Shown here: positions 15,768-37,444 of the stretch, piece by piece
Layout of the letters: each line of letters starts with the position of its first letter
How positions within the stretch are numbered: position 1 is the stretch's first letter
IMG/VR virus record: IMGVR_UViG_3300028800_000073
Span: 15,825-79,824 of that record
Direction: 5' to 3' (one strand)
DNA: 64,000 nucleotides
Source of the DNA: a virus
The notes under the pieces: generated by a model
Database searches by the model: none
What the model saw: only the letters and a program-made list of their open reading frames with translations
Told to the model about the DNA's origin: nothing
Made by a program: the position numbers and the translations under genes

Positions 15768-15860
15768 TTTGTTTTCCTTAGTTTAAGGTGGTTAACGTGT
15801 GTCACTACTCACATGAGCAGCGGCACCGGCCACGATACACCATTTCGTACGAAGTCAATA

Positions 15861-24064: not shown

Positions 24065-24250
24065 TTACCTTCCGTATTCATGCAGTACCCGTGTTTTAAC
24101 TAGTCGATATTCTATGACCGCCTCTGGATCTTCAATGACTACTCTACGACAGGTGGGGCAGAAGTACAAAGAAGCTACCTCATGAACCATATGCTCTTGC
24201 ATCATATCCCCACAACTACACCCCACACTGTCTTGTCCACACCGGCTCAT
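24065..24250 (-). CDS. small Zn-ribbon protein
   Basis: CSCG...FCPTC. Confidence 0.5.
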   Translation of the reverse strand: MSRCGQDSVGCSCGDMMQEHMVHEVASLYFCPTCRRVVIEDPEAVIEYRLVKTRVLHEYGR

Positions 24251-24933
24251 CGCGCCGCCGCTGCTACCGCTACTGTCTTAGGGGTGTTGAACAGTTCTAG
24301 GGACAATAGATTCAAATTAAAGTCCTTTTCTAATGACATACCCCGTAGGTACTTAGAGAACTGACTAACCATCAGACCAGCCGCGATATTGGCTGTGAAG
24401 ATGGTGGACTTAGCGGTACAACTCCCTTGGAAGGCATCCTCTGCTGCAAATAGGCTATCACCATACGAGGGGGTAACGAAGTTGTCTTCGGTCACCACGC
24501 GAATGGTCTCAGCCGACATGCGGGCGTCAATGAACACCTCAGTCTCGGGAAGCTTAGCAACCGTAGCGAAGATCTTACCTCTTGTGGTAATATCGTCGAC
24601 ACAGCAGAAATAGATATCACCCTTAACTGCGTCACAGAACCGCATGTCATGAGCCGTAGTAGCTCCGGGGTTGAGCCCCTCACAATCAACAAGAAGAGCA
24701 TCGACCTTCTTCTTACCGACGTCCCCGGGCCTAAAGCCCTGGGGACCGACATTGACGATGTCAACGGTGTCGAAATCAACGATGTTCAATTTACCGATGC
24801 CACAGGCAGATAGCTGGAGAGCTACCTGCCTGCCAATGGCGCCGACTCCAATAACAACAGCCGCAGTCGCCTTGAGATCTGCGGTTGGCAGCAAAGTAGA
24901 CTGCCTATCGAACCGTGTTGGTTCAGTAGCCAT
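24247..24933 (-). CDS. ThiF/E1-like ubiquitin-like activating enzyme (cassette 1)
   Basis: RFDRQ, VIGVGAIG, DFDTVDIVN...Q, KKKVDA, CCVD, IDARM; candidate thioester Cys in GSCTAK; no Zn CxxC pairs. Confidence 0.9.
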   Translation of the reverse strand: MATEPTRFDRQSTLLPTADLKATAAVVIGVGAIGRQVALQLSACGIGKLNIVDFDTVDIVNVGPQGFRPGDVGKKKVDALLVDCEGLNPGATTAHDMRFCDAVKGDIYFCCVDDITTRGKIFATVAKLPETEVFIDARMSAETIRVVTEDNFVTPSYGDSLFAAEDAFQGSCTAKSTIFTANIAAGLMVSQFSKYLRGMSLEKDFNLNLLSLELFNTPKTVAVAAAAR

Positions 24934-26378
24934 TAGGATTCCCCTAGCATGATTTGAGTTTCTTCTTCGCTCGCCGGCTTAGCCGGTGGAGTGCCGCAAT
25001 ACTCAATGAATGAACCACCATTCTCGATAACATCACTTTCGTCGTACATATCCTGGATCTGGAACAGAGCCGCATCAGCAGTCAGCTCGCCAGATACGAC
25101 TTTCTCAGCCAATAGCATCTCATCGTGGGTCAGGATGAGGGCATCACAGGCGTCTACGGAGCCACGTAGCTGCCATAGACAGTTAGCCCGAACCTTCTTG
25201 TACACATTCGTGACGATGTCGCCGGTAATGACGGTATCACCGTACTTCCGGGTATGCGTCAGATTGTTCATTGCTCTCTCGAAATCATCACGCTCAGCGT
25301 TGATGTTCTCTTCGAAGTCAACAAATGCCCACGCCTGACTAAACGGCAAATCGTAGAACGTCTCACCACGAGACAGCGTAAACCGCTGAGTCCCGTTTGT
25401 TACATTTATGACTTCCTTGAAACCATACTCCTTGAGATACTCTACTCTTTCTGGCGTGGAAGGCGGAACCCACTTAAGCTGCTCCATAGACCAGAGAGCG
25501 TCAACGTACGTACCCTCTGCAAGAGTGGGGGGCGTGACGCCACCTTGTTGTCTGGGAAACGGAATCGTGGACAGTGCCTCCTCCCCATGGGACTTGGCGC
25601 CAATTATGATTTCCTGAGTAATCTCCGCGACTGCGTCAGTAATCGCCTGCTGCGTCGGAGTCGTCTCCTGACGAAGAGCGAGATTCTCCCGTGCAGCAGC
25701 TCTAGCGGCCCGCTTCTGCTGCTTCTTGCTAAGAGGCATCTGCTGCTGTACCTGCTTGCCCCAGTACCCACTTGGGAGCTGTGAGCGCCCCTTGTAGCCA
25801 CCACGGGTATCTGCGTCTTCACCGTAACCACCATAGGCATAGCCCTGGACAGTAATCTTGGGGGTGATCTCTGCCTTCCACTCAGCGTGATTAGCGCCCT
25901 TGAAGTCAGTGGTAAGAGTCAGCTCCTCCTTGAGCATCATCTGGAGGTTAACATCATTGCCAAGGGATACTCGAATACGGGCATAGAGCGGGCCACCCTT
26001 AGGAAGGATAACCATCATTGCCCATGGCATGGAGCCAAAGGATTCAGCGAAAATATTCTCATCGTGCTGCGACGGATTCAGGCATCCAGACGGGTGGGTG
26101 TGGATGTAGATACGTCCAACCTGATGGGGCTTCAACTTATGCGGCCCCTCGGGGTCACAGTACTTCATGAACATGTTGTCAGCGATATCCGCTGCGTCCA
26201 TGTCAACGAATACCGTGGAACACTTCTGCTTCGGAATATACAGATCGGTAACCAAGAATGGGTCAGCCGTTTCAGCTAGACCCATGGCTCCGACTTCATG
26301 GTTATAATGATCGCAGATGAATTGGAGCTTAGCCCGAGCATACGGGGTAAACTTGAGCGTGATGCCGGTGATGTTCAT
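24933..26378 (-). CDS. JAB/MPN metallopeptidase (deubiquitinase-like) with long C-terminal extension (cassette 1)
   Basis: EVGAMG...IHTHPSGCLNPSQHD = E...HxH...SxxD JAMM motif. Confidence 0.85.
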   Translation of the reverse strand: MNITGITLKFTPYARAKLQFICDHYNHEVGAMGLAETADPFLVTDLYIPKQKCSTVFVDMDAADIADNMFMKYCDPEGPHKLKPHQVGRIYIHTHPSGCLNPSQHDENIFAESFGSMPWAMMVILPKGGPLYARIRVSLGNDVNLQMMLKEELTLTTDFKGANHAEWKAEITPKITVQGYAYGGYGEDADTRGGYKGRSQLPSGYWGKQVQQQMPLSKKQQKRAARAAARENLALRQETTPTQQAITDAVAEITQEIIIGAKSHGEEALSTIPFPRQQGGVTPPTLAEGTYVDALWSMEQLKWVPPSTPERVEYLKEYGFKEVINVTNGTQRFTLSRGETFYDLPFSQAWAFVDFEENINAERDDFERAMNNLTHTRKYGDTVITGDIVTNVYKKVRANCLWQLRGSVDACDALILTHDEMLLAEKVVSGELTADAALFQIQDMYDESDVIENGGSFIEYCGTPPAKPASEEETQIMLGES

Positions 26379-26383
26379 TGTGT

Positions 26384-28780
26384 TTATCTTGATGGGGTTT
26401 CGGATATAGCGGGTGCTGCCGTAATGAAGTCTACGTGTGCTAGCCTACAGAGCGTATCAGCAACAACCTCAATTGTAAGACCAGAACGGAAGGTACCATG
26501 GTCATTAAGAGCGCTCCTGAGCCGATGAATGGTTTCATACCAGTCAACGGATTCCCAGTCTTCGAGTTCTGAGCTATCCTCTTCAAAATCTTCATCCTTA
26601 ACAAGTACTAGATCCATGATATACGCCTGAGGCACGAAATGCTGCAACAGAGTCATCAAATAAGCTTCCCGCATACCGGGTTGGCATACCGCGTCTGATA
26701 GGCCCACTGAAGATGGGTCACAGGTCTTACAGGTCTCGGTATTCATGATCTCATCGAAGGCAACAATGGTATTGTTGAAAACAGCATCGGACAAATTTAT
26801 TTCGCCTAGTGTGGCACCACAGCTTGGGCAATTGCACCCCGGCGTTGGAGCTACTACTGGGAACGCTACAGTGGAATCCGCTTCAATAGCCGCACGTTGA
26901 GCCTCTATAACTGCACGCTGAGCCTCGCGGGCTACTCGTGCTGCCTCACGCTGAGCAGCTTCTAATGCTAGTCTAGCCTCTATCTCTTTGTTAACACAGT
27001 TCGCGCAGATACAAGTGCTGCCTTGATTACGACCGTGGTAGCGCCTGGAATCATATCTGGTATTACACGTTGCACACGGCTTGATATAGCGCTTATCAAT
27101 CGACTGTTTACTGATACCACAGACCTCAGTGCAATTCGGGCACATATGGATATCGGCATGCGGATCACGCTTCCTGGTCTCAGCGACAAGGGGCGTAGTA
27201 CAGATATCACAGCGATCCATATCGGACCAATTATCAAGACTGATATATGGCGAACGGCCATACGTCATCAAGATGCGCTCGATATATTGGAATAGATCCG
27301 CGATTAGTCCATTACGCATCAGGTTGCCAGCGGTAGCTAGACCCTCACCGAAACATAGGTGCGTACCCTCAACGTGGGGGTGCGACCAGCTTGTCCCGCG
27401 TTCACGCCTGGGGAAATGCGGGGTAAGCGCCTTAATCCTACAGACTCTATCGACATTACGCTGTGTATCTCCACAGGCATAACCGAAGTCATACGCTGCG
27501 ATGATAATAGCGAACTTATTGAACTTAATCGGGATCTTTCTATCGTCCATCAGTTCGACATCTTCGGTTACGAACTTGATACCAATGGGTGCTACTCCAT
27601 TGTCTATCATGGAACCCTCTTCATGGAACTGAAGAGCCTTGGCACGCATCAAGGTGGCGCACTCAACGATGAACCGATCAATGACGTCTTGCGACGGACG
27701 AGGCGGTTCCACGTTGTAGGGGTTCTCACCATTTTTAATGGCCAGCAATTCGTCTAGCACCTTCTTCTTCATGTCATTAGAGAAAGCTTCACGAAGAATA
27801 GTGGGCAGCTTCTGGGCACTCTCGCCGCAGCAGAACAGGCCGTGCCAATGGGCTAACACATTAGTGACGCGTTGGAAATTCCCAGCGTTACCATTTGCTG
27901 CGCCCTTCTTGAGCCCCTCTTCGTAACCGAAATAGAAGTTCTGCACTACTTTAATGAGTTTGTCTAAATCCTCGATGGCATCAGGAACTAGCCTGCGCAC
28001 CGTCGAGTCTACAGCAGTTCCCTGCTCTGTGTTCAGTGTTCTCACTTGTCTTTCCTGTGGTGTTACTACTGCAATAGCGCTTCTGTCTGATCCCGTACTA
28101 GCGAAGTCGGTACTTACGCTGAAAATTCTGGGAGCGTCGCTACTCACCATAAACATATGCGGTGGTATGCCCATAGCCCGGGTGTAGTCACTTAATGTAG
28201 CCCGCAATGGACCTTCTTCTACTACCATGTGAGCCGGAATCGGCTGGATCGGAGGCGCCATTGGTTCTAACGCCTCCTGAATAGCACGGAGACTAGCAGC
28301 CGCAGATGCAGGGCTGGGGAAGGCGCCAGTTAAGTCGCCACCGACAGTACCAACTGTATTGTTCGCCCCAGCTGCTCGCTGGCTTTCAATGGCGTGCATA
28401 ATCTCACGACCATCAGCGTTAATCTCGTCCATCACAGTATGATTAGCCGGTCTACCACGTATCGTAAAAACATCCCCGGGGCGGATCTGAGTCATTACGG
28501 GAGCGCGGCTATTATCCAGTAGAACGCGGTTGACTTCGTCTCTAAACTGTACTTCGCTTAACGGCACTGGTACTGGGCGGTTAAGTGCCCTATCTACAAT
28601 ATTTGTCGAAGCGTTATCACCGAACTGTTCTCTCCAGGCGCTCTGGCGTACCAAAAGCTCATCTAAGACATCTCGTGACATATTCGGGAATCGCTCCCGT
28701 AAATTAGGGGGATGCCTGAAATAGTCCAGAGCGTCCTGGAGCATGTCATCCGGTGAGGAAAAAGGGTTGAACTCACTCAC
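26384..28780 (-). CDS. prokaryotic E2-like conjugating enzyme fused to Cys-rich Zn-finger region (cassette 1)
   Basis: HPHVEGTHLCFGEG (HPH/N-x-C UBC-type signature), ..ILMTY..SPY..LDNW; followed by several CxxC pairs and a coiled coil. Confidence 0.75.
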   Translation of the reverse strand: MSEFNPFSSPDDMLQDALDYFRHPPNLRERFPNMSRDVLDELLVRQSAWREQFGDNASTNIVDRALNRPVPVPLSEVQFRDEVNRVLLDNSRAPVMTQIRPGDVFTIRGRPANHTVMDEINADGREIMHAIESQRAAGANNTVGTVGGDLTGAFPSPASAAASLRAIQEALEPMAPPIQPIPAHMVVEEGPLRATLSDYTRAMGIPPHMFMVSSDAPRIFSVSTDFASTGSDRSAIAVVTPQERQVRTLNTEQGTAVDSTVRRLVPDAIEDLDKLIKVVQNFYFGYEEGLKKGAANGNAGNFQRVTNVLAHWHGLFCCGESAQKLPTILREAFSNDMKKKVLDELLAIKNGENPYNVEPPRPSQDVIDRFIVECATLMRAKALQFHEEGSMIDNGVAPIGIKFVTEDVELMDDRKIPIKFNKFAIIIAAYDFGYACGDTQRNVDRVCRIKALTPHFPRRERGTSWSHPHVEGTHLCFGEGLATAGNLMRNGLIADLFQYIERILMTYGRSPYISLDNWSDMDRCDICTTPLVAETRKRDPHADIHMCPNCTEVCGISKQSIDKRYIKPCATCNTRYDSRRYHGRNQGSTCICANCVNKEIEARLALEAAQREAARVAREAQRAVIEAQRAAIEADSTVAFPVVAPTPGCNCPSCGATLGEINLSDAVFNNTIVAFDEIMNTETCKTCDPSSVGLSDAVCQPGMREAYLMTLLQHFVPQAYIMDLVLVKDEDFEEDSSELEDWESVDWYETIHRLRSALNDHGTFRSGLTIEVVADTLCRLAHVDFITAAPAISETPSR

Positions 28781-29070
28781 GTCTTCCTCGACAACTTCTC
28801 AAGCGCAGCATCTAGCCCTTTGACTCTGAACTCGCTGACATCTCCTTCATGGTTACAAAGACCACAAACGCATAGGCTATGCTCGTGAAAGTCGAATTCG
28901 GCCATGTCGACCATTATTCCTTTACTGTCAAAAATACCTACACATACGCCGCCTATCTCAAAACGAGATCTACCTCCGCATCCCGGGCAGATCAGGTCTT
29001 GGGATGTGCCCCGGTTTATGTCGTTTTTCGTTAATCTGAACTTCGTTATTACTTCATTGGGGTCATTCAT
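28777..29070 (-). CDS. Zn-ribbon protein
   Basis: CPGCG...CGLCNHEG. Confidence 0.6.
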   Translation of the reverse strand: MNDPNEVITKFRLTKNDINRGTSQDLICPGCGGRSRFEIGGVCVGIFDSKGIMVDMAEFDFHEHSLCVCGLCNHEGDVSEFRVKGLDAALEKLSRKT

Positions 29071-29864
29071 TACTTACCTACGATAGTGAACTTCTTTGCT
29101 AATTTAAGACGCTTCTGCAATGTCTCACGATCCCAACCCTGGCCCTTGGGCTTCGGCTTAGGGCTAAGCTGGAAAACCATAACCAATACACCTTCGCCAC
29201 CTACGCCTATACTAAGAGTTTCGAGATGCTTACCTACGTGTCCATTCTTATAGCAGCTGGACAACGTAAACTGAATGAAATCCTCCTCGCTCGGATTCGG
29301 AGTACCATAGTCCAGCACTGCGTTTTCTACTAACCCGGCTCTGTAGGAACTATACTTACAAGGCTTATTGAACGTTAGGAAGAGTAGCCCACCACGCTTC
29401 TTCATCATTGAAGTGAGACCTCTCTCTAATTGCCGAGCACAATCACCGTAGTCGTCGCAGGCTATAACATCGAATTTCCAGCTATCGCGATCAGCTATCT
29501 CGGCAAACTGGGCTGCCATAACTGTAAGCGCGTCGCCGTCTTCCTTGCGTCGGTTAACCATTTCAGAACAGAAGGGTCGGAAAGCCTTAGTCATCTCACC
29601 TTCCTGCCCATCATCCTTAAAAGCATGGGACTGATACAGAACTAGCCCGGATTTACCCTCCAGCCATTTTTGTATGAGTCCCTGTTTTTCGGTATGGTGC
29701 ATCGAAGGATGCCCAGTAGCCTTTTTCCATTGACGCCTGTAAATGTTAACCTTAGACAATTCCAAATTCAACTTCTCGCCAATCTCTTTGTTCGGTGCGC
29801 CGCTATGCATCATTGCAAATATTGCGTCACGAAGTTTAGTACCATCAGCTAGGCGTATAGTCAT
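29070..29864 (-). CDS. HTH protein with possible degenerate SAM-dependent methyltransferase domain
   Basis: N-terminal NKEIGEKLNLELSKVNIY HTH; KFDVIACDDYG and GGLLFLTF resemble class I MTase strands 4/5. Confidence 0.4.
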   Translation of the reverse strand: MTIRLADGTKLRDAIFAMMHSGAPNKEIGEKLNLELSKVNIYRRQWKKATGHPSMHHTEKQGLIQKWLEGKSGLVLYQSHAFKDDGQEGEMTKAFRPFCSEMVNRRKEDGDALTVMAAQFAEIADRDSWKFDVIACDDYGDCARQLERGLTSMMKKRGGLLFLTFNKPCKYSSYRAGLVENAVLDYGTPNPSEEDFIQFTLSSCYKNGHVGKHLETLSIGVGGEGVLVMVFQLSPKPKPKGQGWDRETLQKRLKLAKKFTIVGK

Positions 29865-29877
29865 GTTTTTTCCTATA

Positions 29878-29910
29878 GAAAAAGATGCCCCCGTGGGGTT
29901 ACCACGGGGG
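29878..29910 (-). terminator. intrinsic terminator after tri-Ubl gene
   Basis: Minus RNA CCCCCGUGG-UAACC-CCACGGGGG followed by CAUCUUUUU. Confidence 0.75.
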
Positions 29911-29938: not shown

Positions 29939-30604
29939 TTAGGCGCCCTGGACCTTGAGCGGGGTGACGGAGATCTTGTCCCCGTTACGCAGCACAGTCG
30001 CAGCCGTGGAGATCTCGTTGTTCACACGAACGAGCTTGCCACGGATGTCATTCAGGCCCTGCTGAGCAAGGAACTGAGTCAGGGTGATGCCGTCAATGGT
30101 CTGAACGGAGCTGGCGAAGCCGGCACCATCGTTGTTGATGTACAGAACCTTAATGGTCTCCACGGCACCCTGGACCTTGAGCGGGGTAACCGAGACCTTA
30201 TCGCCGTTCTGGAGAACGTAACCCGCATCAGCCAGGTTGTTATTCACGCGAACCATCTTGTTGGCGATGCTGACACCACGACCCGAAATGAACGCCGCGA
30301 GCGTGGTGCCCGGGGTGAACGCAACGGAGTCAGCGAAGCCGCCGCCATCGTTGTTGATGAACAGGACCTTGCTAGCAGCAGCGGGAGCCGCGTAAGCAGG
30401 GGCCGCAGCGAACTCGATCTCAATGTAGTCACCGTGCTTAATCGTAGCGTGACCGCTTGAGGGGGTCTCGGAACGGTTAATGTAGACGGAGGAACCAGCG
30501 GGGAGGCCTAGCGCGTTGATGAGTGCATAGACCGTGATATCACCGGCGAAATCCTTGAATGCCGGGGTGCCGCCGTTGATTTCAACGTTTACTGAGATAG
30601 TCAT
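29939..30604 (-). CDS. triple beta-grasp ubiquitin-like protein (ThiS/MoaD-like x3; cassette 1 Ubl)
   Basis: Three ~70-aa repeats; repeats 2 and 3 follow VL(F/Y)INNDG.GFA...VRVNN...L.NGDK.SVTPLKVQGA; identical 20-mer at 29946-29965 and 30168-30187. Confidence 0.85.
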   Translation of the reverse strand: MTISVNVEINGGTPAFKDFAGDITVYALINALGLPAGSSVYINRSETPSSGHATIKHGDYIEIEFAAAPAYAAPAAASKVLFINNDGGGFADSVAFTPGTTLAAFISGRGVSIANKMVRVNNNLADAGYVLQNGDKVSVTPLKVQGAVETIKVLYINNDGAGFASSVQTIDGITLTQFLAQQGLNDIRGKLVRVNNEISTAATVLRNGDKISVTPLKVQGA

Positions 30605-30608
30605 TTTG

Positions 30609-32930
30609 TTATTCCTTCTTAGCTAATTTGATGGTTTGATCAAAGAAGCTGGTTAGTGATTCGGCGTGTGTAACTATTAATATCTGTCTCCCGGTACTCC
30701 CGGAAAACTGCTTTAATTTCAAGAGTAACTGTTGTAGATGAACAACGTTGCTCTCGTCTAAATGGTTCGTCGGTTCGTCGAGTATGAGTAACCCAACGGA
30801 ACGCGCAAATGTGTCAGACATCGCGAGGCGGAAGCTTGTACTTGCTACAATCTTCTGACCACCGCTTAACCGGTGAGCCGGTAGCTCAAAGCCACTACTG
30901 AACTTGGCTCTAAACGACAGGTCTGCATCCAAGTAAAATTGAAACGGGGCTTCCCAAATCGCCATATAGTGCGCCATGCGCCTATTGATCTTATTGGCGT
31001 ACTCCCGCATCATTAGAGCTGGTAATCCATTGACATGGACTACTTCTCTAGCTCGGGAACACAGTGAAGACCACTTAGCGGCATTACGCTCGTGGTCATA
31101 CTGCTTCCTAAGCTGATCAACCGTACTACGGAGCTGGATAAGCTTGGCCTCAGTAACGCCGAGCTTAGTAACTAGTTCGCTTCGAGTTTGTGTCCGCGCA
31201 GACAATATCTCAATCTTTTCTTGAGCTTCTTGTAACTCTGCTGGGGACATCTCGAACTCACTGGTACCCAGTTTAAGCACCATATCCTTGAGCCGTGCTA
31301 CCTCTGACGCACACGACGCTTGGGCTGCTTGCTTAATCTGTACCCCTGACTCCGCTTTAACTACCTGATCCTGTAGCTCCCTAAAGGCATCTACGGCCTT
31401 CTGGAGTGACTCAATTTTACCGCTATCAATGCTGGGCAACCTACTGAGTTGAGTACTGATATCGAGTAAACGATTAGTACCCTGTTTATAGGCTCCCCAT
31501 TGTGTCTCCAAAGCGGCCTTACTAGCGAGCATTTGGTCGTATTGCGGTTTCGTGGCTTCAAGCATATTTGCCACAGCCACGCAAGCCGCTTTACGACGCT
31601 CTTCTAGTTGCTCCGATATAGTACCCAAATCCCTCTGGGCAGCAGCGACTCTCATCGATTGGTCGCTCTTAATCTTAGCTATCTCAGCATGCATAGTAGC
31701 GGCACGCTGCTTGAGATCGGCATCATTGAAGTCGACAATAGGCCGGTGGCACGTTGGACAGCTACCATCGGCAAATGTCTGTAATTCGTACTGAATCCTG
31801 CGGATGTCAGCCTCGATGACCACTAGCTTGGGGTCGTCACGTTTCAGTTCTGACAACTGTTTCGTTAACCCTTCGACACGATTCGCTAGATCCCTATCCT
31901 CTTCTGTTTGGGGTAAGGGTATCTCTTTGCGAATAATGGCTTTTAACTTTGAGCGGGTCTCGGTGAGCTTATTAATGGTCTCATCGTATATAGTGATCTC
32001 AGCACCGGGCTTAACCAGTTTGGCGTCAATAGTTTGACGCTCGCTGCTCAATACATTACGTTGTGTCCAAGCTGACTTAGCTTGATCCAATTCTTTAGCC
32101 TGTTCAGCAGCTCCGGTCCGTAGAGCGGAGAAACGCTGAGCAATGATATCGTATTCCTGCTTGGCTAAACTCAGAACCTTGTCGGCCTCTATGTAGCGCT
32201 CCTGCGCCAGGGAAAGAGCCTCTTCGGTTTGCCGTTTAGCTGACGCACTCTGTTGAGCGATCCTGTAATGCCTCAGGCGCTCTTCGTACTTCGACAATCC
32301 AAGTAGTTCTTCTTCAATAACCCTGAGTTGCTCCCGGAACTCCTGTAGTTCCGTTGTAACCGTTTGTGCGGCCCCTGAAGTAACTCCGAGCTGCTCTTCT
32401 AGCCCTGGAGTGACAGTCAGAGAAGAAATCTCAGTGGACAGTAACCTGTAGACATCAGCGGCCTTGGATAAGCCGAAGGTGTCTTGGAACTCTTTGAGTC
32501 TCTCGGTATTCGTCTTAAATAGGATGTCGTCAATGGCGTGCTGAGCAATGAAGACGTTGTTGAGCAACGCATCCATTCTGGTATTGAGTAGAAGAGTCAT
32601 CTTCTCTTCTATCTCAGCCTGCCGACTAACGATGCCTCCAGGGAACTTTAATTGTTGCCGAGATGGCTCTAGTACGCGCTTGATCTCGTAACTGCTATCC
32701 CCGTGGGTGAACGCCAACGTAACTGATCCAGTACGTTCACCCACAGTGATATTTTCAGCACGAGGCCCCGACGCGACTGACTCACCGGTAACAGCAAATC
32801 GGATCGCATCGAGTAGCGACGATTTACCGCAACCATTAGGCCCCAAGATACCGGTCAAGCCTTCACTGAACCGGATATCCAAGGACTTCAGTGGCCCCCA
32901 GTTTGTCGTTTGTAGCCGCGTCAGAATCAC
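30609..32930 (-). CDS. sbcC: Rad50/SbcC-like SMC ATPase (gp46-like)
   Basis: Walker A GPNGCGKS, Q-loop FIAQ, coiled coil with CPTC zinc hook, LSGGQ signature, LILDEP, VTH. Confidence 0.93.
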   Translation of the reverse strand: MILTRLQTTNWGPLKSLDIRFSEGLTGILGPNGCGKSSLLDAIRFAVTGESVASGPRAENITVGERTGSVTLAFTHGDSSYEIKRVLEPSRQQLKFPGGIVSRQAEIEEKMTLLLNTRMDALLNNVFIAQHAIDDILFKTNTERLKEFQDTFGLSKAADVYRLLSTEISSLTVTPGLEEQLGVTSGAAQTVTTELQEFREQLRVIEEELLGLSKYEERLRHYRIAQQSASAKRQTEEALSLAQERYIEADKVLSLAKQEYDIIAQRFSALRTGAAEQAKELDQAKSAWTQRNVLSSERQTIDAKLVKPGAEITIYDETINKLTETRSKLKAIIRKEIPLPQTEEDRDLANRVEGLTKQLSELKRDDPKLVVIEADIRRIQYELQTFADGSCPTCHRPIVDFNDADLKQRAATMHAEIAKIKSDQSMRVAAAQRDLGTISEQLEERRKAACVAVANMLEATKPQYDQMLASKAALETQWGAYKQGTNRLLDISTQLSRLPSIDSGKIESLQKAVDAFRELQDQVVKAESGVQIKQAAQASCASEVARLKDMVLKLGTSEFEMSPAELQEAQEKIEILSARTQTRSELVTKLGVTEAKLIQLRSTVDQLRKQYDHERNAAKWSSLCSRAREVVHVNGLPALMMREYANKINRRMAHYMAIWEAPFQFYLDADLSFRAKFSSGFELPAHRLSGGQKIVASTSFRLAMSDTFARSVGLLILDEPTNHLDESNVVHLQQLLLKLKQFSGSTGRQILIVTHAESLTSFFDQTIKLAKKE

Positions 32931-32932
32931 GC

Positions 32933-33139
32933 TTAGTTACTCTTGATCTTCTGGGTCAAGAGAACAGCGTTACCCTCCATGAGGACGGTGCCAAGGGCGC
33001 CGACGCTGCCATTGATGCGGATGTCGAAGCCTGAGGCGTCGATACCAGCTGCTGCTAGGGCATCAGCTACCGTCTTGCCTTCCGGGAGGTTGAGGGGGCG
33101 GATGGATGAGCCAGGGAACTTGCCGATGGTGATATTCAT
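32933..33139 (-). CDS. single ubiquitin-like (beta-grasp) protein (cassette 2)
   Basis: 68 aa ITIGKFPG...LPEGKTVADALAAAGI...DIRING...L.EG..VLLTQKIKSN; adjacent to E1. Confidence 0.8.
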   Translation of the reverse strand: MNITIGKFPGSSIRPLNLPEGKTVADALAAAGIDASGFDIRINGSVGALGTVLMEGNAVLLTQKIKSN

Positions 33140-33150
33140 GTGATTCTTTC

Positions 33151-33849
33151 TTATGACCGGGTTAGGATACAGGGAGGTGTGACGCCGAAAATTGTTTCTC
33201 TTGGCATCCGTTCGACCTTAGAGGCCTTGTCGGTGTACCAATTGAACCAGTTAATGAAACTCCATACCGCTAGACCGCTAACGATCTCAGCAGTGGGGCC
33301 AACGGTAATTTGCGAACCACAAGCACTGACAACAACGACTTCTTCGTCGCCGCAGAGAGTGCCCTCCCAGAATTTGACGTCATCAGGACTCGTCGGACGC
33401 ACCGTATAGGTACGACCTAAGTCGACACCCATACGGGTCTCGAACATGACGTCGATAAATGGCTTATACCGCACGGCCCCTTCCCAGATTTCCTTTCTGG
33501 AGGACATTGTGTCGGTAAGCAAGAATACTACGGACCCCAGCGTTGTGCGGCCATTAACGGCCTCACAATGTTTGGTCACGTCTAAATTCGTCTGTGTCTT
33601 AATAAGGTCAGCTAAGGCGTCTACCTTGAACTTACCGATGTCGTTGTTGCCGTAAATCTGATTTGCGATATTGTGGGACTCGACCTTGTCGAAATCCCAG
33701 ACATGCAAATTGATAACACCGAGCTTAGCCAGACCCATGGCGATACGACTACCAGTGGCTCCGACTCCGATAACGTCAATACGGGTATTGTCGAACTTAA
33801 CCGGCGAGAATACCTTTTGGTGCCGCATGGCATCGACTAAGTTACTCAC
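33151..33849 (-). CDS. ThiF/E1-like activating enzyme (cassette 2); start revised to GTG 33849
   Basis: MRHQ, VIGVGATGS, WDFDKVESHNIANQ, KFKVDA, LLTD, FETRMG; candidate Cys in SACG. Confidence 0.9.
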   Translation of the reverse strand: MSNLVDAMRHQKVFSPVKFDNTRIDVIGVGATGSRIAMGLAKLGVINLHVWDFDKVESHNIANQIYGNNDIGKFKVDALADLIKTQTNLDVTKHCEAVNGRTTLGSVVFLLTDTMSSRKEIWEGAVRYKPFIDVMFETRMGVDLGRTYTVRPTSPDDVKFWEGTLCGDEEVVVVSACGSQITVGPTAEIVSGLAVWSFINWFNWYTDKASKVERMPRETIFGVTPPCILTRS

Positions 33850-34609
33850 CCCAGAACGTTTCTTCGCTGAATTGTCCAAAGCGACCCGACGCAGGACCAG
33901 CCTGCTGTCCGGATGCCGAGAACTCCGCATGCGTCTTCATAGGTGCCGCGTGGGGATCTACAAAGTTACTTCTCGGTGTCGGCGTTGGAGTCTGATATGG
34001 ATACGAGATCAGAGACTTATTGGCCGAATAAAACGATTCAACCAACGAGTTGACCTCTTTACCCCAGTGGCTTTTTCGGTCGCCCCCGGCAGCGTAATCG
34101 ATCTCCCAATCAATATCCTCGACTACGATGTCCATCTCGAACCAGAAGAAGTCCAACTTCATCTTGTGACGCTTGTTCACGATGCCACGGAGCACCCAGG
34201 GGTACTCGTAGTTATCGCGGAACGCCATCGTCTGGTCGTTGTCCTGACCACTGGGCAAAACGTCCATATTGACGTGGCTATGGAAATAGCCGCGCAAGTT
34301 ATTGGCACGCCACAACGCTGGATCGATACCAGCGGCCATGTCCTCAGCGATAAGCTGAGTACCTAGTGTGGATAGCCCCTCGGAAGTCAGCTCAGTGGTT
34401 GTCGAGTGAACCTGCTGCTTGAACAAATAGACGTCATCAACATAAATGACGCGCTCGCCGTTCTCTTTGACTAAACGAGCCGTGGTCAGCCAGCCGACTT
34501 CGGTACTAACAATATCAGTCAAAATCCACATATCCGTAGCCGCCCTGAGTGAGACTTTCACTCGGGGGCAGCCTAGGACGGTGGTCTGGAATGCATGTGG
34601 ATTAAACAT
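33842..34609 (-). CDS. JAB/MPN metallopeptidase (cassette 2)
   Basis: TEVGWL...YFHSHVNMDVLPSGQD JAMM motif. Confidence 0.85.
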   Translation of the reverse strand: MFNPHAFQTTVLGCPRVKVSLRAATDMWILTDIVSTEVGWLTTARLVKENGERVIYVDDVYLFKQQVHSTTTELTSEGLSTLGTQLIAEDMAAGIDPALWRANNLRGYFHSHVNMDVLPSGQDNDQTMAFRDNYEYPWVLRGIVNKRHKMKLDFFWFEMDIVVEDIDWEIDYAAGGDRKSHWGKEVNSLVESFYSANKSLISYPYQTPTPTPRSNFVDPHAAPMKTHAEFSASGQQAGPASGRFGQFSEETFWGE

Positions 34610-36351
34610 TAGAACGGCCCTTCTCCTGGAGTTCTTTCTACTTCGTCAGCATCTTCTGGTGCCCCAACTGCTACAAGCTCTTCTAAAGCAGCGGCAATAA
34701 CTTCAACAATCTCTGCACCGTCAACAGCAGTAGCCGTGCCAGTAGCGCCGGCTCCGGCATCAACAATCGTTACAGTATCAACAGCAACAGGTGGTACCGC
34801 AACAGGTGGTACCGCAACAGGTGGTACCGCAACAGGTGGTGCTTCAGCCACTGCTGGGGTTTCTTCTTCACCCTCTAGAATGCCTTCAACAACAGTCTCA
34901 ACGGTATCGACTTCAACGGGCTGCCCAGCTGCCGCTCGTGCTGCACGACGCAACTCCCGAGCTGCTTCCTTATCGATCTCCTGTTGCTTAACCGATAGCG
35001 GCCAAGCATGAACCATCTTGCCGGCGGCGTCGTCAACATTGCAGGTCTGGAGAATCGCAATCACTAGCTCGATGGCATCAGCAATCTGATATCCAGCGAC
35101 TAGCTTCGGTAGCACCTCTTCCATATTGCCGAGACACATACGCCCCGTTGGGAACACATGGGGACCATGCATATTGGGCTGCATACCAGTCACTTGGCGA
35201 TCAAGGTTGGTAACGACGATGTTGTACCGCTTGATATCGATATGAATCGACATGCGACCAACTTCGTGCTCCTTCTTCGACCGTGGATCAACTACTGTCA
35301 AAGTATTGGTGCGCACCGTAATATTACCGTTACGCATCCTGATCTGCTGGATCAACGGATTAGCCGCCAGACGATCATACTCTGCTGTGAATCGCGGAGT
35401 ACTGAAATCGGCATCATTGTCTAGTACTGCTATTTCCTTGAGGCACTGGCGTTCTTCGCGGATCCCGTCAAATACCTTCTTATTCAAGTTCGTAAGCTCG
35501 GTCTGGACCGTGTTCAGTCTATTGGTGATCTCACGGACCTGGATCTGCTTACGCTTCTCAACCATTCTGACGTAGTCCGCTCGTAGCGCTGCTGGATCAG
35601 TCTCGACGAGCTTAGCACGGGCATAGTTCTCGGCAACGTATTGAATGATCTTCTTGAAGATCTCAACTTCTCTAGGGCTATTGTTGTGACACAAGTCCGA
35701 ATAGATATAGAGGTTATTCTCATCGAAGCCTGCAATCGGTCGCTCGGGATACTCCGGGGAGCAAACGTCTATGCCCTCAGTCCATGGGACGCCATCCATT
35801 GCGTCACGGGTCTGTAACTCCATGCCCCACAGAATCCGAGGTGGATCATACGAGGGCTCGCCTCCATCTCGTGCTTCTGGAGTAGCCCACACATGAATCT
35901 TGAACATCGATTCAAGGGTATTGGGAACAATGGAACGACTATTATGTGGTACGTCGATAGTGACATCGCGCTTAATGACGGGGACCAAGATCTCACGGCA
36001 GATCTTTAGCCAGCCATCGGCTACTGGGTTACTGACAACACCACCACGGATATGACCCCAGTTAACTATACGGATCGTTGAAGGATCCCTACCGGCAACG
36101 GACGGGGTACCATCACGATAAACAATTTGAGCAACCTTTATGATAACCCCGGCAGCTTCAGCTGTTGGCGGTGTAGCAACGGTAGCGGTGATATTGTAGA
36201 GCTTACGACCAGAGCTTTCAATCTTAGCGATTAATGCTTCTCTAGCTACGAAGTGACCACCATGCTGGGGTTCACCGTAGATACGCAAGCCGATCCCACG
36301 AAGTTCTTCGCGGGACATCTCGGTTGCTTTGACAAGGACTAGTTCAGGCAT
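34609..36351 (-). CDS. prokaryotic E2-like conjugating enzyme with coiled coil and acidic low-complexity tail (cassette 2)
   Basis: HGPHVFPTGRMCLGN signature, preceded by VGRMSIHID strands and followed by helix ..IAILQTCN.DD..G....W. Confidence 0.75.
   Translation of the reverse strand: MPELVLVKATEMSREELRGIGLRIYGEPQHGGHFVAREALIAKIESSGRKLYNITATVATPPTAEAAGVIIKVAQIVYRDGTPSVAGRDPSTIRIVNWGHIRGGVVSNPVADGWLKICREILVPVIKRDVTIDVPHNSRSIVPNTLESMFKIHVWATPEARDGGEPSYDPPRILWGMELQTRDAMDGVPWTEGIDVCSPEYPERPIAGFDENNLYIYSDLCHNNSPREVEIFKKIIQYVAENYARAKLVETDPAALRADYVRMVEKRKQIQVREITNRLNTVQTELTNLNKKVFDGIREERQCLKEIAVLDNDADFSTPRFTAEYDRLAANPLIQQIRMRNGNITVRTNTLTVVDPRSKKEHEVGRMSIHIDIKRYNIVVTNLDRQVTGMQPNMHGPHVFPTGRMCLGNMEEVLPKLVAGYQIADAIELVIAILQTCNVDDAAGKMVHAWPLSVKQQEIDKEAARELRRAARAAAGQPVEVDTVETVVEGILEGEEETPAVAEAPPVAVPPVAVPPVAVPPVAVDTVTIVDAGAGATGTATAVDGAEIVEVIAAALEELVAVGAPEDADEVERTPGEGPF
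34784..34840. repeat. 15-bp tandem repeat (GCAACAGGTGGTACC x3.8) encoding PPVAV repeats
   Basis: Exact units at 34784, 34799, 34814; partial at 34829. Confidence 0.9.
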
Positions 36352-37444
36352 TGATATTTTCTCGTTTCTTAATGAGTATTTCTACTGGGTCTGAGTTTGG
36401 TTCTAAGAGATTGAGTAAGAAGCCGTGTAATTCGGACTGTTTATTGGGGTCGACTAATGTACTAAGTAATGCTGCGACAGAGATGTCATCGGTCTCTTGT
36501 GACGACTGAAGCTCCTCAGCGTCTTCGGTGTCTAGGACGGGGTCGCGGTGGATGATGGCCTTTCGTGTTTCTACGAAGCGTTTGTAGATCTCCGAAAATG
36601 AGGTATTCATTTCCGGTGAATGATGGATCCAAGCAAATGGGGGAAGTGGTCCAGCTTCCATGTCACCGCAGGCTTCGCAGAGCCAGTTGTGGACATGAGA
36701 CAGACCGATATCGTCTAAGACCGTAAAGCGTTTGATATGACGGTACGACAAGGGATGCCGGTCATAGGACAGGTCGTCGTTAATGACGACACAGCTCTTG
36801 GGTCCGATCTGCGTGATATCCCTGGCGTGACCGGGACCGGTATAACAGGCTCGGCGGTTACCGGGTAGTGTGAAGTCCATCGGTACGTGGATATCACCGA
36901 TAACAGTCAATTTACAGTTACCCGGAATCCACTCTAAATCACAGTTCCAAGCATTCTCGAAGCCCAGGGCTTGCTTGACGGCTTGGTGGAGGAACAAAAC
37001 CCTTTCTGTGCCTTCAGGATCGACTTTGTTGGCTAACCCCTCCAAGGAGGCCTTGATGTCATCTTTCGAGCTGTAATCGAACCCCAGGGCAGAGCAACCA
37101 CCTAAATCAAACGGTTCCCCGTTGCCAACGTACTTCGGCCAGTCATGGAGCGCACTGGGCCACGGAGTCTTTTGGAGGTCATGATTGCCTTGGATAAAGA
37201 ATACTGGGATCCCAGCTTCTTTGGCGCGATCCATTTGTCTTCGGTGAATCGTTACGAGATCAGAAGACGGTTTCGTAGTGTCAAAGAGATCCCCAACGAT
37301 CACTGCTGGTACCTTCAGCCCAATGGCTGCGCCAATGAAACTGCTGTAACCCAGTTCAGAGTCTCCTCTTACGGTATCTATACTACTCCAGATCTTAGGG
37401 TCTAAGTGGATGTCTCCAAGTGCTACTGCAATCGGTTTTGTCAT
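36344..37444 (-). CDS. sbcD: Mre11/SbcD-like nuclease (gp47-like)
   Basis: GDIHL, VGDLFD, QGNHD, FLHQ, GDIH, YTG. Confidence 0.9.
   Translation of the reverse strand: MTKPIAVALGDIHLDPKIWSSIDTVRGDSELGYSSFIGAAIGLKVPAVIVGDLFDTTKPSSDLVTIHRRQMDRAKEAGIPVFFIQGNHDLQKTPWPSALHDWPKYVGNGEPFDLGGCSALGFDYSSKDDIKASLEGLANKVDPEGTERVLFLHQAVKQALGFENAWNCDLEWIPGNCKLTVIGDIHVPMDFTLPGNRRACYTGPGHARDITQIGPKSCVVINDDLSYDRHPLSYRHIKRFTVLDDIGLSHVHNWLCEACGDMEAGPLPPFAWIHHSPEMNTSFSEIYKRFVETRKAIIHRDPVLDTEDAEELQSSQETDDISVAALLSTLVDPNKQSELHGFLLNLLEPNSDPVEILIKKRENINA

Follow-up and report, generated by a model that had tools for sequence, protein, structure and literature searches.

The window, the whole stretch of 64,000 nucleotides that was analysed, belongs to a 79.8-kb viral contig of IMG/VR (IMGVR_UViG_3300028800_000073, positions 15,825 to 79,824) with a CheckV completeness of 43%. 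It carries a gene for a three-domain ubiquitin-like protein (hereafter tri-Ubl), a cassette of E2-like, JAB, and E1 genes, and two further genes between them (Table 1). The tri-Ubl gene is read from the minus strand; the original prediction had not given the strand, and this is the sole correction to what it had observed. The gene is regarded as real, since a viral contig (L002) contains an orthologue with 58% identity in a region that is syntenic throughout, and since a protein database search with tri-Ubl returned 59 homologues. The INPHARED phage collection yielded no tri-Ubl match by tblastn, the PDB sequence search with tri-Ubl gave nothing usable, and the Pfam model Multi_ubiq (PF14452) was not among the tri-Ubl matches at E ≤ 0.1.

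Table 1. Features of the tri-Ubl gene and of the E2-like/JAB/E1 cassette, in positions of the window.
Feature	Position	Strand	Remarks and support
ThiF-type E1	24247..24933	-	228 aa
JAB/JAMM peptidase	24933..26378	-	481 aa; JAMM domain in the first ~170 aa
E2-like protein	26384..28780	-	798 aa; UBC/UEV-like core; HPH-x6-C (H467, P468, H469, C476), then multi-CxxC array
Two genes between tri-Ubl and the cassette	28777..29864	-	264 aa; 97 aa, Zn-ribbon-like; conserved in L002
Intrinsic-terminator-like hairpin and T-run	29888..29910	-	9 bp, 8 GC; directly 3' of the tri-Ubl stop
tri-Ubl gene	29939..30604	-	221 aa + stop; L002 orthologue; AF2 pLDDT 90.7
D3, complete unit with C-terminal KVQGA	29942..30163	-	aa 148–221; alignment, AF2, tree
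D2–D3 junction LKVQGA-VET, candidate internal JAB site	30155..30181	-	aa 142–150; pLDDT dip; family-wide motif
D2, complete unit, INNDGGGFA hairpin ... SVTPLKVQGA	30164..30373	-	aa 78–147; alignment, AF2, tree
Ala/Pro-rich linker	30374..30412	-	aa 65–77; sequence reading; pLDDT blocks 81 and 71
D1, degenerate β-grasp unit without TPxKxxGA tail	30413..30604	-	aa 1–64; AF2; alignment

The 74-aa duplication that had been predicted for the second and third domains (D2 and D3) was borne out: D2 (about aa 75–147) and D3 (aa 148–221) aligned end to end with 42 of 74 positions identical (57%), and the C-terminal SVTPLKVQGA, which is directly followed by the stop, recurred as an identical decapeptide at aa 138–147. 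The identical 20-nt DNA that had also been pointed out was recovered as the exact coding-strand repeat ACCCCGCTCAAGGTCCAGGG, present in both tail-coding stretches at a spacing of 222 nt, and the DNA repeat search returned stretches of 54 nt at 81% (spacing 222) and 84 nt at 71% (spacing 219). The agreement of the two tails in synonymous codons was weighed as a sign of gene conversion and set aside, because the codons in question are GC-rich ones that are preferred anyway. The spacer between D2 and D3 measured 3 residues in tri-Ubl and 0–4 residues in its relatives. The first domain (D1) shared only 14–18 identities with D2 and D3, lacked the TPxKxxGA tail, and was joined to D2 via the Ala/Pro linker AAAPAYAAPAAAS, which agrees with its earlier description as a divergent, linker-joined domain without a QG motif.

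The AF2 model of tri-Ubl, built from a 26-row alignment, consisted of the three anticipated β-grasp domains with a mean pLDDT of 90.7 and a pTM of 0.41. The elements modelled in D1 were E2-9, E15-20, H25-32, E39-42, and E60-64. The pLDDT dipped at the D1–D2 linker, at the D2–D3 junction (68 for aa 141–150), and at the last residues (42); at a pTM of 0.41, the model gave no sign of a fixed mutual orientation or of a packed D1–D2 or D2–D3 interface. In a Foldseek search of the PDB with this model, the best matches were linear tetra- and tri-ubiquitin, followed by ISG15 and FAT10 (E values from 3e-10 to 1e-6), and the three-domain Ubl_3 of E. coli (9cd2_A) took rank 30.

The units of tri-Ubl represent a protein family that has no Pfam model of its own. 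The recurring 72-aa unit reads M-x-I-L-F-I-N-N-D-G-G-G-F-A-D ... I-R-V-N ... G-D-R-x-S-x-T-P-x-K-[IV]-x-G-A, and a single-unit profile run against 1.84 billion proteins found 1110 cluster representatives at E ≤ 0.001 and 596 at E ≤ 1e-10, the clusters being defined at 50% identity. The usual family member is a single 72-aa unit that ends in TPxK[IV]xGA plus 0–6 variable residues. The β1–β2 hairpin I-N-N-D-G-G-G-F-A-D (unit residues 6–15) shows the highest conservation within the unit and is invariant in the single-unit members; its Asp/Asn/Gly-rich loop could bind a metal or be recognised by the E1 or E2, and the Ca2+ sites of Ubl_3 make this worth noting.

Among the GTDB genomes, the unit was detected at 111 places, 80 of which were kept. 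Nearly all of these loci were from Planctomycetota MAGs (Planctomycetaceae, Pirellulales, Phycisphaerae, Gemmataceae, and Kuenenia), and the Ubl was mostly single-domain. After the Ubl, homologues of the 798-aa, 481-aa, and 228-aa proteins of the window were encoded at 70, 66, and 61 of the 80 loci, respectively, and the operon order (Ubl, E2-like, JAB, E1) was constant. The same four-gene operon with a single-unit Ubl was present in eight of nine further viral contigs. Judged by homology, the window genes at 24247–28780 are the E2-like/JAB/E1 cassette of this conserved operon. The gene order in the genome and viral loci indicates that tri-Ubl belongs with this cassette and not with a second one, located at 33151–36351 in the window; quite probably, tri-Ubl is the conjugatable Ubl of the cassette at 24247–28780. 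The Ubl/E2-like/JAB/E1 system belongs to a large family common to Planctomycetota mobile elements and their phages, and a literature search found no paper on this operon in Planctomycetes or on a phage-encoded Ubl system. The two genes that separate tri-Ubl from the cassette were kept in L002 and were absent from the bacterial and other viral operons; the 264-aa protein had a weak LuxR-type HTH match, and the 97-aa protein is Cys-rich.

The catalytic features of the cassette enzymes were conserved across their families. An alignment of 69 E1 sequences retained the GxGxxG motif, D113, and C172. The window E1 matched Pfam ThiF (2e-21) as a single domain at residues 18–212, was 40–50% identical to the Planctomycetota operon E1s, which are ~220–230 aa long, and had as PDB matches eukaryotic E1s (UBA5, NAE), MoeB/ThiF, MccB, PaaA, and similar proteins. 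In the JAB family, E28, H93, H95, S103, and D106 (the JAMM pattern E...HxH...S..D) were conserved in 74 sequences, and the bacterial operon JAB was homologous to the first 170 residues of the 481-aa window protein. The E2-like family showed an invariant H-P-H-x6-C, then a Gly, and then up to nine CxxC pairs. Residues ~366–600 of the window E2-like protein were homologous to the product of the ~350-aa gene that follows the Ubl (74 loci), the phage version (798 aa) being over twice as long as the bacterial one. No Pfam model matched the E2-like protein, which fell into an Atlas cluster whose 2546 'hypothetical proteins' come mostly from Planctomycetota. Its residues 330–700 were modelled by AF2 with a pLDDT of 73.5, and in a wide structural search with VIA-align, the top 28 rows were nearly all E2/UEV/RWD folds (Z from 5.0 to 6.7, about 120 aligned residues at 3.5–4 Å); a Foldseek search with the same model gave no match at E ≤ 0.001 and agreed weakly with an E2-type fold. 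From the middling Z values of the modelled region, together with the motif, the 798-aa protein is probably a carrier of the E2 type that includes its own zinc-finger array. Searching the PDB by sequence for the E2-like protein and for the JAB returned nothing usable. PADLOC matched only the two E1s of the window, to CBASS E1-E2 models, and PHROGs gave matches only to families of unassigned function.

Several further genes accompany the operon in bacteria. In about 13 loci (L021, L026, L032, L036, L045, L048, L058, L061, L065, and L078–L081), the Ubl and the E2-like gene have a small gene between them, about 30–260 nt past the Ubl motif. It has an AAGGAG ribosome-binding site and the start ATG GGA GCC CGA CAA CG, its ~75-aa product is hydrophobic and Arg-rich at one end, and it overlaps the stretch by which the Ubl frame is extended 3'. 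Upstream of the Ubl and on the same strand, an AAA ATPase (PF00004) and several uncharacterised proteins were encoded at 27 of the 80 genome loci; no homologue of this AAA block was found in the phage window. At locus L030 (104–7229 and 11481–16091), the block opens with a large serine recombinase and a DUF1257 protein and adjoins Wadjet JetD and JetC, which is a mobile-element or defence-island setting.

The second cassette of the window (33151–36351, minus strand) is divergent and encodes an E2-like protein (580 aa, with a GPHV...C motif), a JAB (255 aa), and an E1 (259 aa). It is flanked by an sbcD-like (Mre11-like) gene at 36344–37444 and an sbcC-like gene at 30609–32930; of its three enzymes, the E1 alone shows a recognisable similarity to the Planctomycetota operon, and the arrangement is kept in L002. 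The Ubl of this cassette (68 aa, 32933–33139, minus strand) ends in LLTQKIKSN, without Gly, and this is not a read error, since the same ending recurred in L002 and in each of the three database homologues. One homologue (P0204) has a 30-residue extension beyond KIKSN, which suggests that Ser-Asn may take the role of Gly-Ala and that the 68-aa Ubl may likewise be trimmed. The original prediction had spoken of "each JAB" in connection with cleavage of tri-Ubl; this was too broad, only the 481-aa JAB (24933–26378) being homologous to the JAB that accompanies the Ubl family.

The tail TPxK[IV]xG[AG] was invariant in the family alignments and was followed, beyond the residue after the conserved Gly (Gly+1), by 0–11 non-conserved residues. 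Such variable overhangs behind an invariant tail are the usual sign of maturation by a peptidase, and the sequences of this family may be read in the same way. At some bacterial loci, the Ubl frame continued for 25–30 residues beyond the motif and overlapped the start of the small membrane-protein gene; a string in these long overhangs, KGxPWEPxN, was considered as a propeptide motif and rejected, as it corresponds to the ribosome-binding site and start of that overlapping gene. The C-terminus statistics were calculated for 126 family members with a short C-terminus. The conserved Gly was the last residue in none of them, whereas 27 ended at Gly+1 (Ala in 24 cases); Gly+1 was Ala or Gly in 118 of the 126, and the residues from Gly+2 onward were variable. 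The cut had been placed between Gly and Ala (G|A), the same site as in BilA, for which cleavage at G|A was shown with the E. aridi protein (10.1101/2023.09.26.559546). By the statistics, this placement is possibly off by one: they agree at least equally well with a functional end of Gly-Ala, comparable to the Gly-Gly of ubiquitin. A mature end of Gly-Ala rather than Gly is slightly favoured, given that Gly+1 is so often Ala or Gly and that family members end there and never at Gly. If so, the C-terminus of tri-Ubl would need no processing, and the only tasks of the JAB would be the cut at the junction (A147|V148) and deconjugation. E1-like enzymes can adenylate ends other than Gly, e.g., MccB acts on the C-terminal Asn of MccA. 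In the Cap2 preprint, no support was found for Ala as an activated C-terminus.

According to the unit tree, at least five independent tandem duplications have occurred in the family (P0015, P0027, P0040, P0031/P0035, and P0010/P0021). P0015 comprises two near-identical copies, each running from Met to Gly-Gly with zero spacer, and P0010 comprises three near-identical copies. In the phage clade (the window protein and P0002–P0005), the D2 units and the D3 units formed separate, well-supported sister clades, so the duplication is older than these phages, and both tails still read SVTPLKV[EQ]GA, with Q/Q in the window and E/E in the other four proteins. At the variable tail position, units of the same protein agreed in 46 of the 57 multi-unit members versus 47% of random pairs, these counts being phylogenetically non-independent. 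D1 aligned with the degenerate first unit of distant three-domain relatives, and this unit has lost the tail in every three-domain lineage; hence, the fold itself does not require the tail. The full internal tail at D2 was retained in at least 16 multi-domain lineages, and the internal Gly was lost in two, namely in the three-domain relatives P0066 (KIQAA) and P0093 (NIKAA), from which it follows that an uncleaved multi-domain tag is viable in the Ubl family. The polyubiquitin-like reading of the gene was upheld in part: a Ubl modifier accompanied by an E1, an E2-like protein, and a JAB, with a tail that is the conserved activation and processing motif of the family, is what was found, and the loss of the internal Gly in P0066 and P0093 counts against the remainder.

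Compared with known systems, tri-Ubl resembles eukaryotic polyubiquitin (UBB, UBC, and yeast UBI4) in its head-to-tail complete units with their own activation tails and little or no spacer, in the extra C-terminal residues of many family members, and in the repeated duplication and concerted change of units. It differs in that only two of its three domains are complete, its units are 57% rather than ~100% identical, its tail is Gly-Ala and not Gly-Gly, its presumed processing enzyme is a JAMM metallopeptidase, and its cleavage is one that we infer; beyond the fold, there is no detectable sequence relation to ubiquitin. The BilABCD systems of Types I and II (10.1101/2023.09.04.556158; 10.1101/2023.09.26.559546) share the four functions and, with the relatives of tri-Ubl, the order Ubl, E2, JAB, E1. 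Type II BilA also ends in Gly-Ala, and BilC cuts it at G|A, between Gly97 and Ala98, and cleaves linear fusions such as BilA-GFP at the conserved Gly (10.1101/2023.09.26.559546). In contrast, the E1 of BilABCD has ~500 aa with IAD, AAD, and a mobile CYS domain (10.1101/2023.09.26.559546), whereas the window E1 is a single ThiF domain of 228 aa; moreover, the window E2-like protein has a long CxxC array and no Pfam model, and the Ubl is displaced from its cassette by two genes. In BilA, conservation ends with the Gly, and the residues behind it vary, whereas in the tri-Ubl family Gly+1 is conserved as well. As in Ubl_3/Multi_ubiq (PMC1779556), the first domain or domains of tri-Ubl may act as an assembly or recognition module; tri-Ubl differs from this group in having neither a Multi_ubiq Pfam match nor a PDB sequence match. 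Ubl_3 is reported to be an intact homodimer or filament with Ca2+ sites, whereas tri-Ubl has a middle domain with a full activation tail and no packed interface in its model. Multi-domain bacterial Ubls are already known (Ubl_3 and the ISG15-like BilA). Three-domain Ubls make up 21–53% of Type II Bil and Bub Ubls, with Ca2+-dependent dimers and filaments, and the paper that describes Ubl_3 does not report cleavage between its domains (10.1101/2024.11.21.623966).

The reading that we prefer, tentatively and at somewhat less than even confidence, is that the tag of the phage cassette is built as a tandem-unit precursor, internal cleavage included. In this precursor, D1 would be a unit that has decayed and lost its capacity for activation, and D2 and D3 would be complete, each with its K-V-Q-G-A tail on a flexible stretch. 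The JAB of the cassette would cut the D2–D3 junction to give D1–D2 (about 147 aa) and D3 (about 74 aa); the E1 would adenylate the exposed tail, which would be transferred to Cys476 of the E2-like protein and attached to targets, and the JAB would also reverse the tagging. The mature C-terminus would be Gly (G|A, as in BilA) or Gly-Ala (as the family statistics have it). The main mechanistic argument is that a JAB indifferent to the residues behind the motif would see the downstream unit as one more overhang; as the JAB has to trim the variable tails of the single-unit relatives in any case, internal cleavage may reasonably be expected. For cleavage at the D2–D3 junction taken by itself, the balance is close to even. 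Against the precursor reading stand the following points: internal cleavage is something that we infer from sequence, the identical tails could reflect gene conversion and not selection, tri-Ubl is not adjacent to its cassette but separated from it by two genes and a terminator, it shares its transcript with sbcC and the second cassette, and the E2 assignment draws on middling Z values plus a motif. It is rather doubtful that one gene gives two conjugatable tags (D1–D2 and D3) through the phage JAMM peptidase, both ending in Gly-Ala and activated by the minimal E1.

Instead of being cut, tri-Ubl may act as a multi-domain tag in the manner of ISG15, FAT10, or Ubl_3, in which activation is confined to the D3 tail, D1 and D2 contribute to oligomerisation, target recognition, or shielding, and the internal KVQGA persists either as a linker or by gene conversion with the tail of D3. 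This is the chief competing explanation, and a considerable but minor share of the probability falls to it. The bacterial three-domain Ubls reported as intact homodimers and filaments are common, E. coli Ubl_3 is itself among the fold matches, distant relatives with 30–40% identity share the D1-linker-D2-D3 architecture, and the internal Gly is missing from the three-domain proteins P0066 and P0093. These two losses are, however, set against at least 16 multi-domain lineages with the full internal tail, while the tail of D1 is always lost; the low pTM and the low-pLDDT junction give no sign of a packed interface, Multi_ubiq is not matched, and a JAB that removes arbitrary overhangs behind the motif would be expected to cut the junction too.

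Two other explanations concern the purpose of the protein. As a decoy or sponge, a Ubl with several tails would saturate or misdirect the homologous E1 or JAB of the host (the Planctomycetota operon) as a form of counter-defence. The same operon family does occur on host mobile elements beside defence genes (in L030, Wadjet JetC/JetD and a serine recombinase), the related Bil systems are anti-phage, and tri-Ubl has its own terminator and stands apart from the phage cassette. This is nevertheless improbable, as the phage cassette is complete, with all catalytic residues conserved, and is kept in the syntenic L002, and the ordinary four-gene operon in eight of nine further viral contigs argues for use and not for mere blocking. 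A sulfur carrier of the ThiS/MoaD type, whose E1 would supply a thiocarboxylate to the synthesis of cofactors or thionucleosides and which would tag no protein, is brought to mind by the name 'sulfur carrier protein ThiS' that the sources give to several homologues, by precomputed ThiS Pfam matches for many of them, and by a single-unit relative that scored 23.9 bits against the ThiS cut-off of 22.5. This reading is highly improbable and was rejected: the ten neighbouring window proteins gave no Pfam match to ThiG, ThiH, MoaE, or a sulfurtransferase, the Ubl is always accompanied by a JAB and an E2-like protein with an invariant Cys, the tail is Gly-Ala with variable overhangs and not Gly-Gly, and tandem units would be senseless for such a protein.

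Ubiquitin-type tagging in bacteria has so far been associated with host anti-phage defence (Bil, CBASS Cap2/Cap3) or with Bub systems, and its multi-domain tags have been described as intact. Here, the machinery is phage-borne and the tag has a polyubiquitin layout. With a family as large as this (about 1100 clusters at 50% identity), whose E2-like protein no Pfam model covers, a whole conjugation system is yet to be characterised. If the D2–D3 junction is cut, precursor-style production of Ubls would have evolved outside eukaryotes, and two distinct tags would come from one gene; one JAB, one small E1, and one E2-like protein would then make a simple in vitro system for studying how a JAMM peptidase reads a linear Ubl–Ubl junction, and the same system would bear on the activation of a C-terminal Ala by an E1. 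Should the reading of two conjugatable tags be true, the gene layout of polyubiquitin would have evolved independently in viruses of bacteria.
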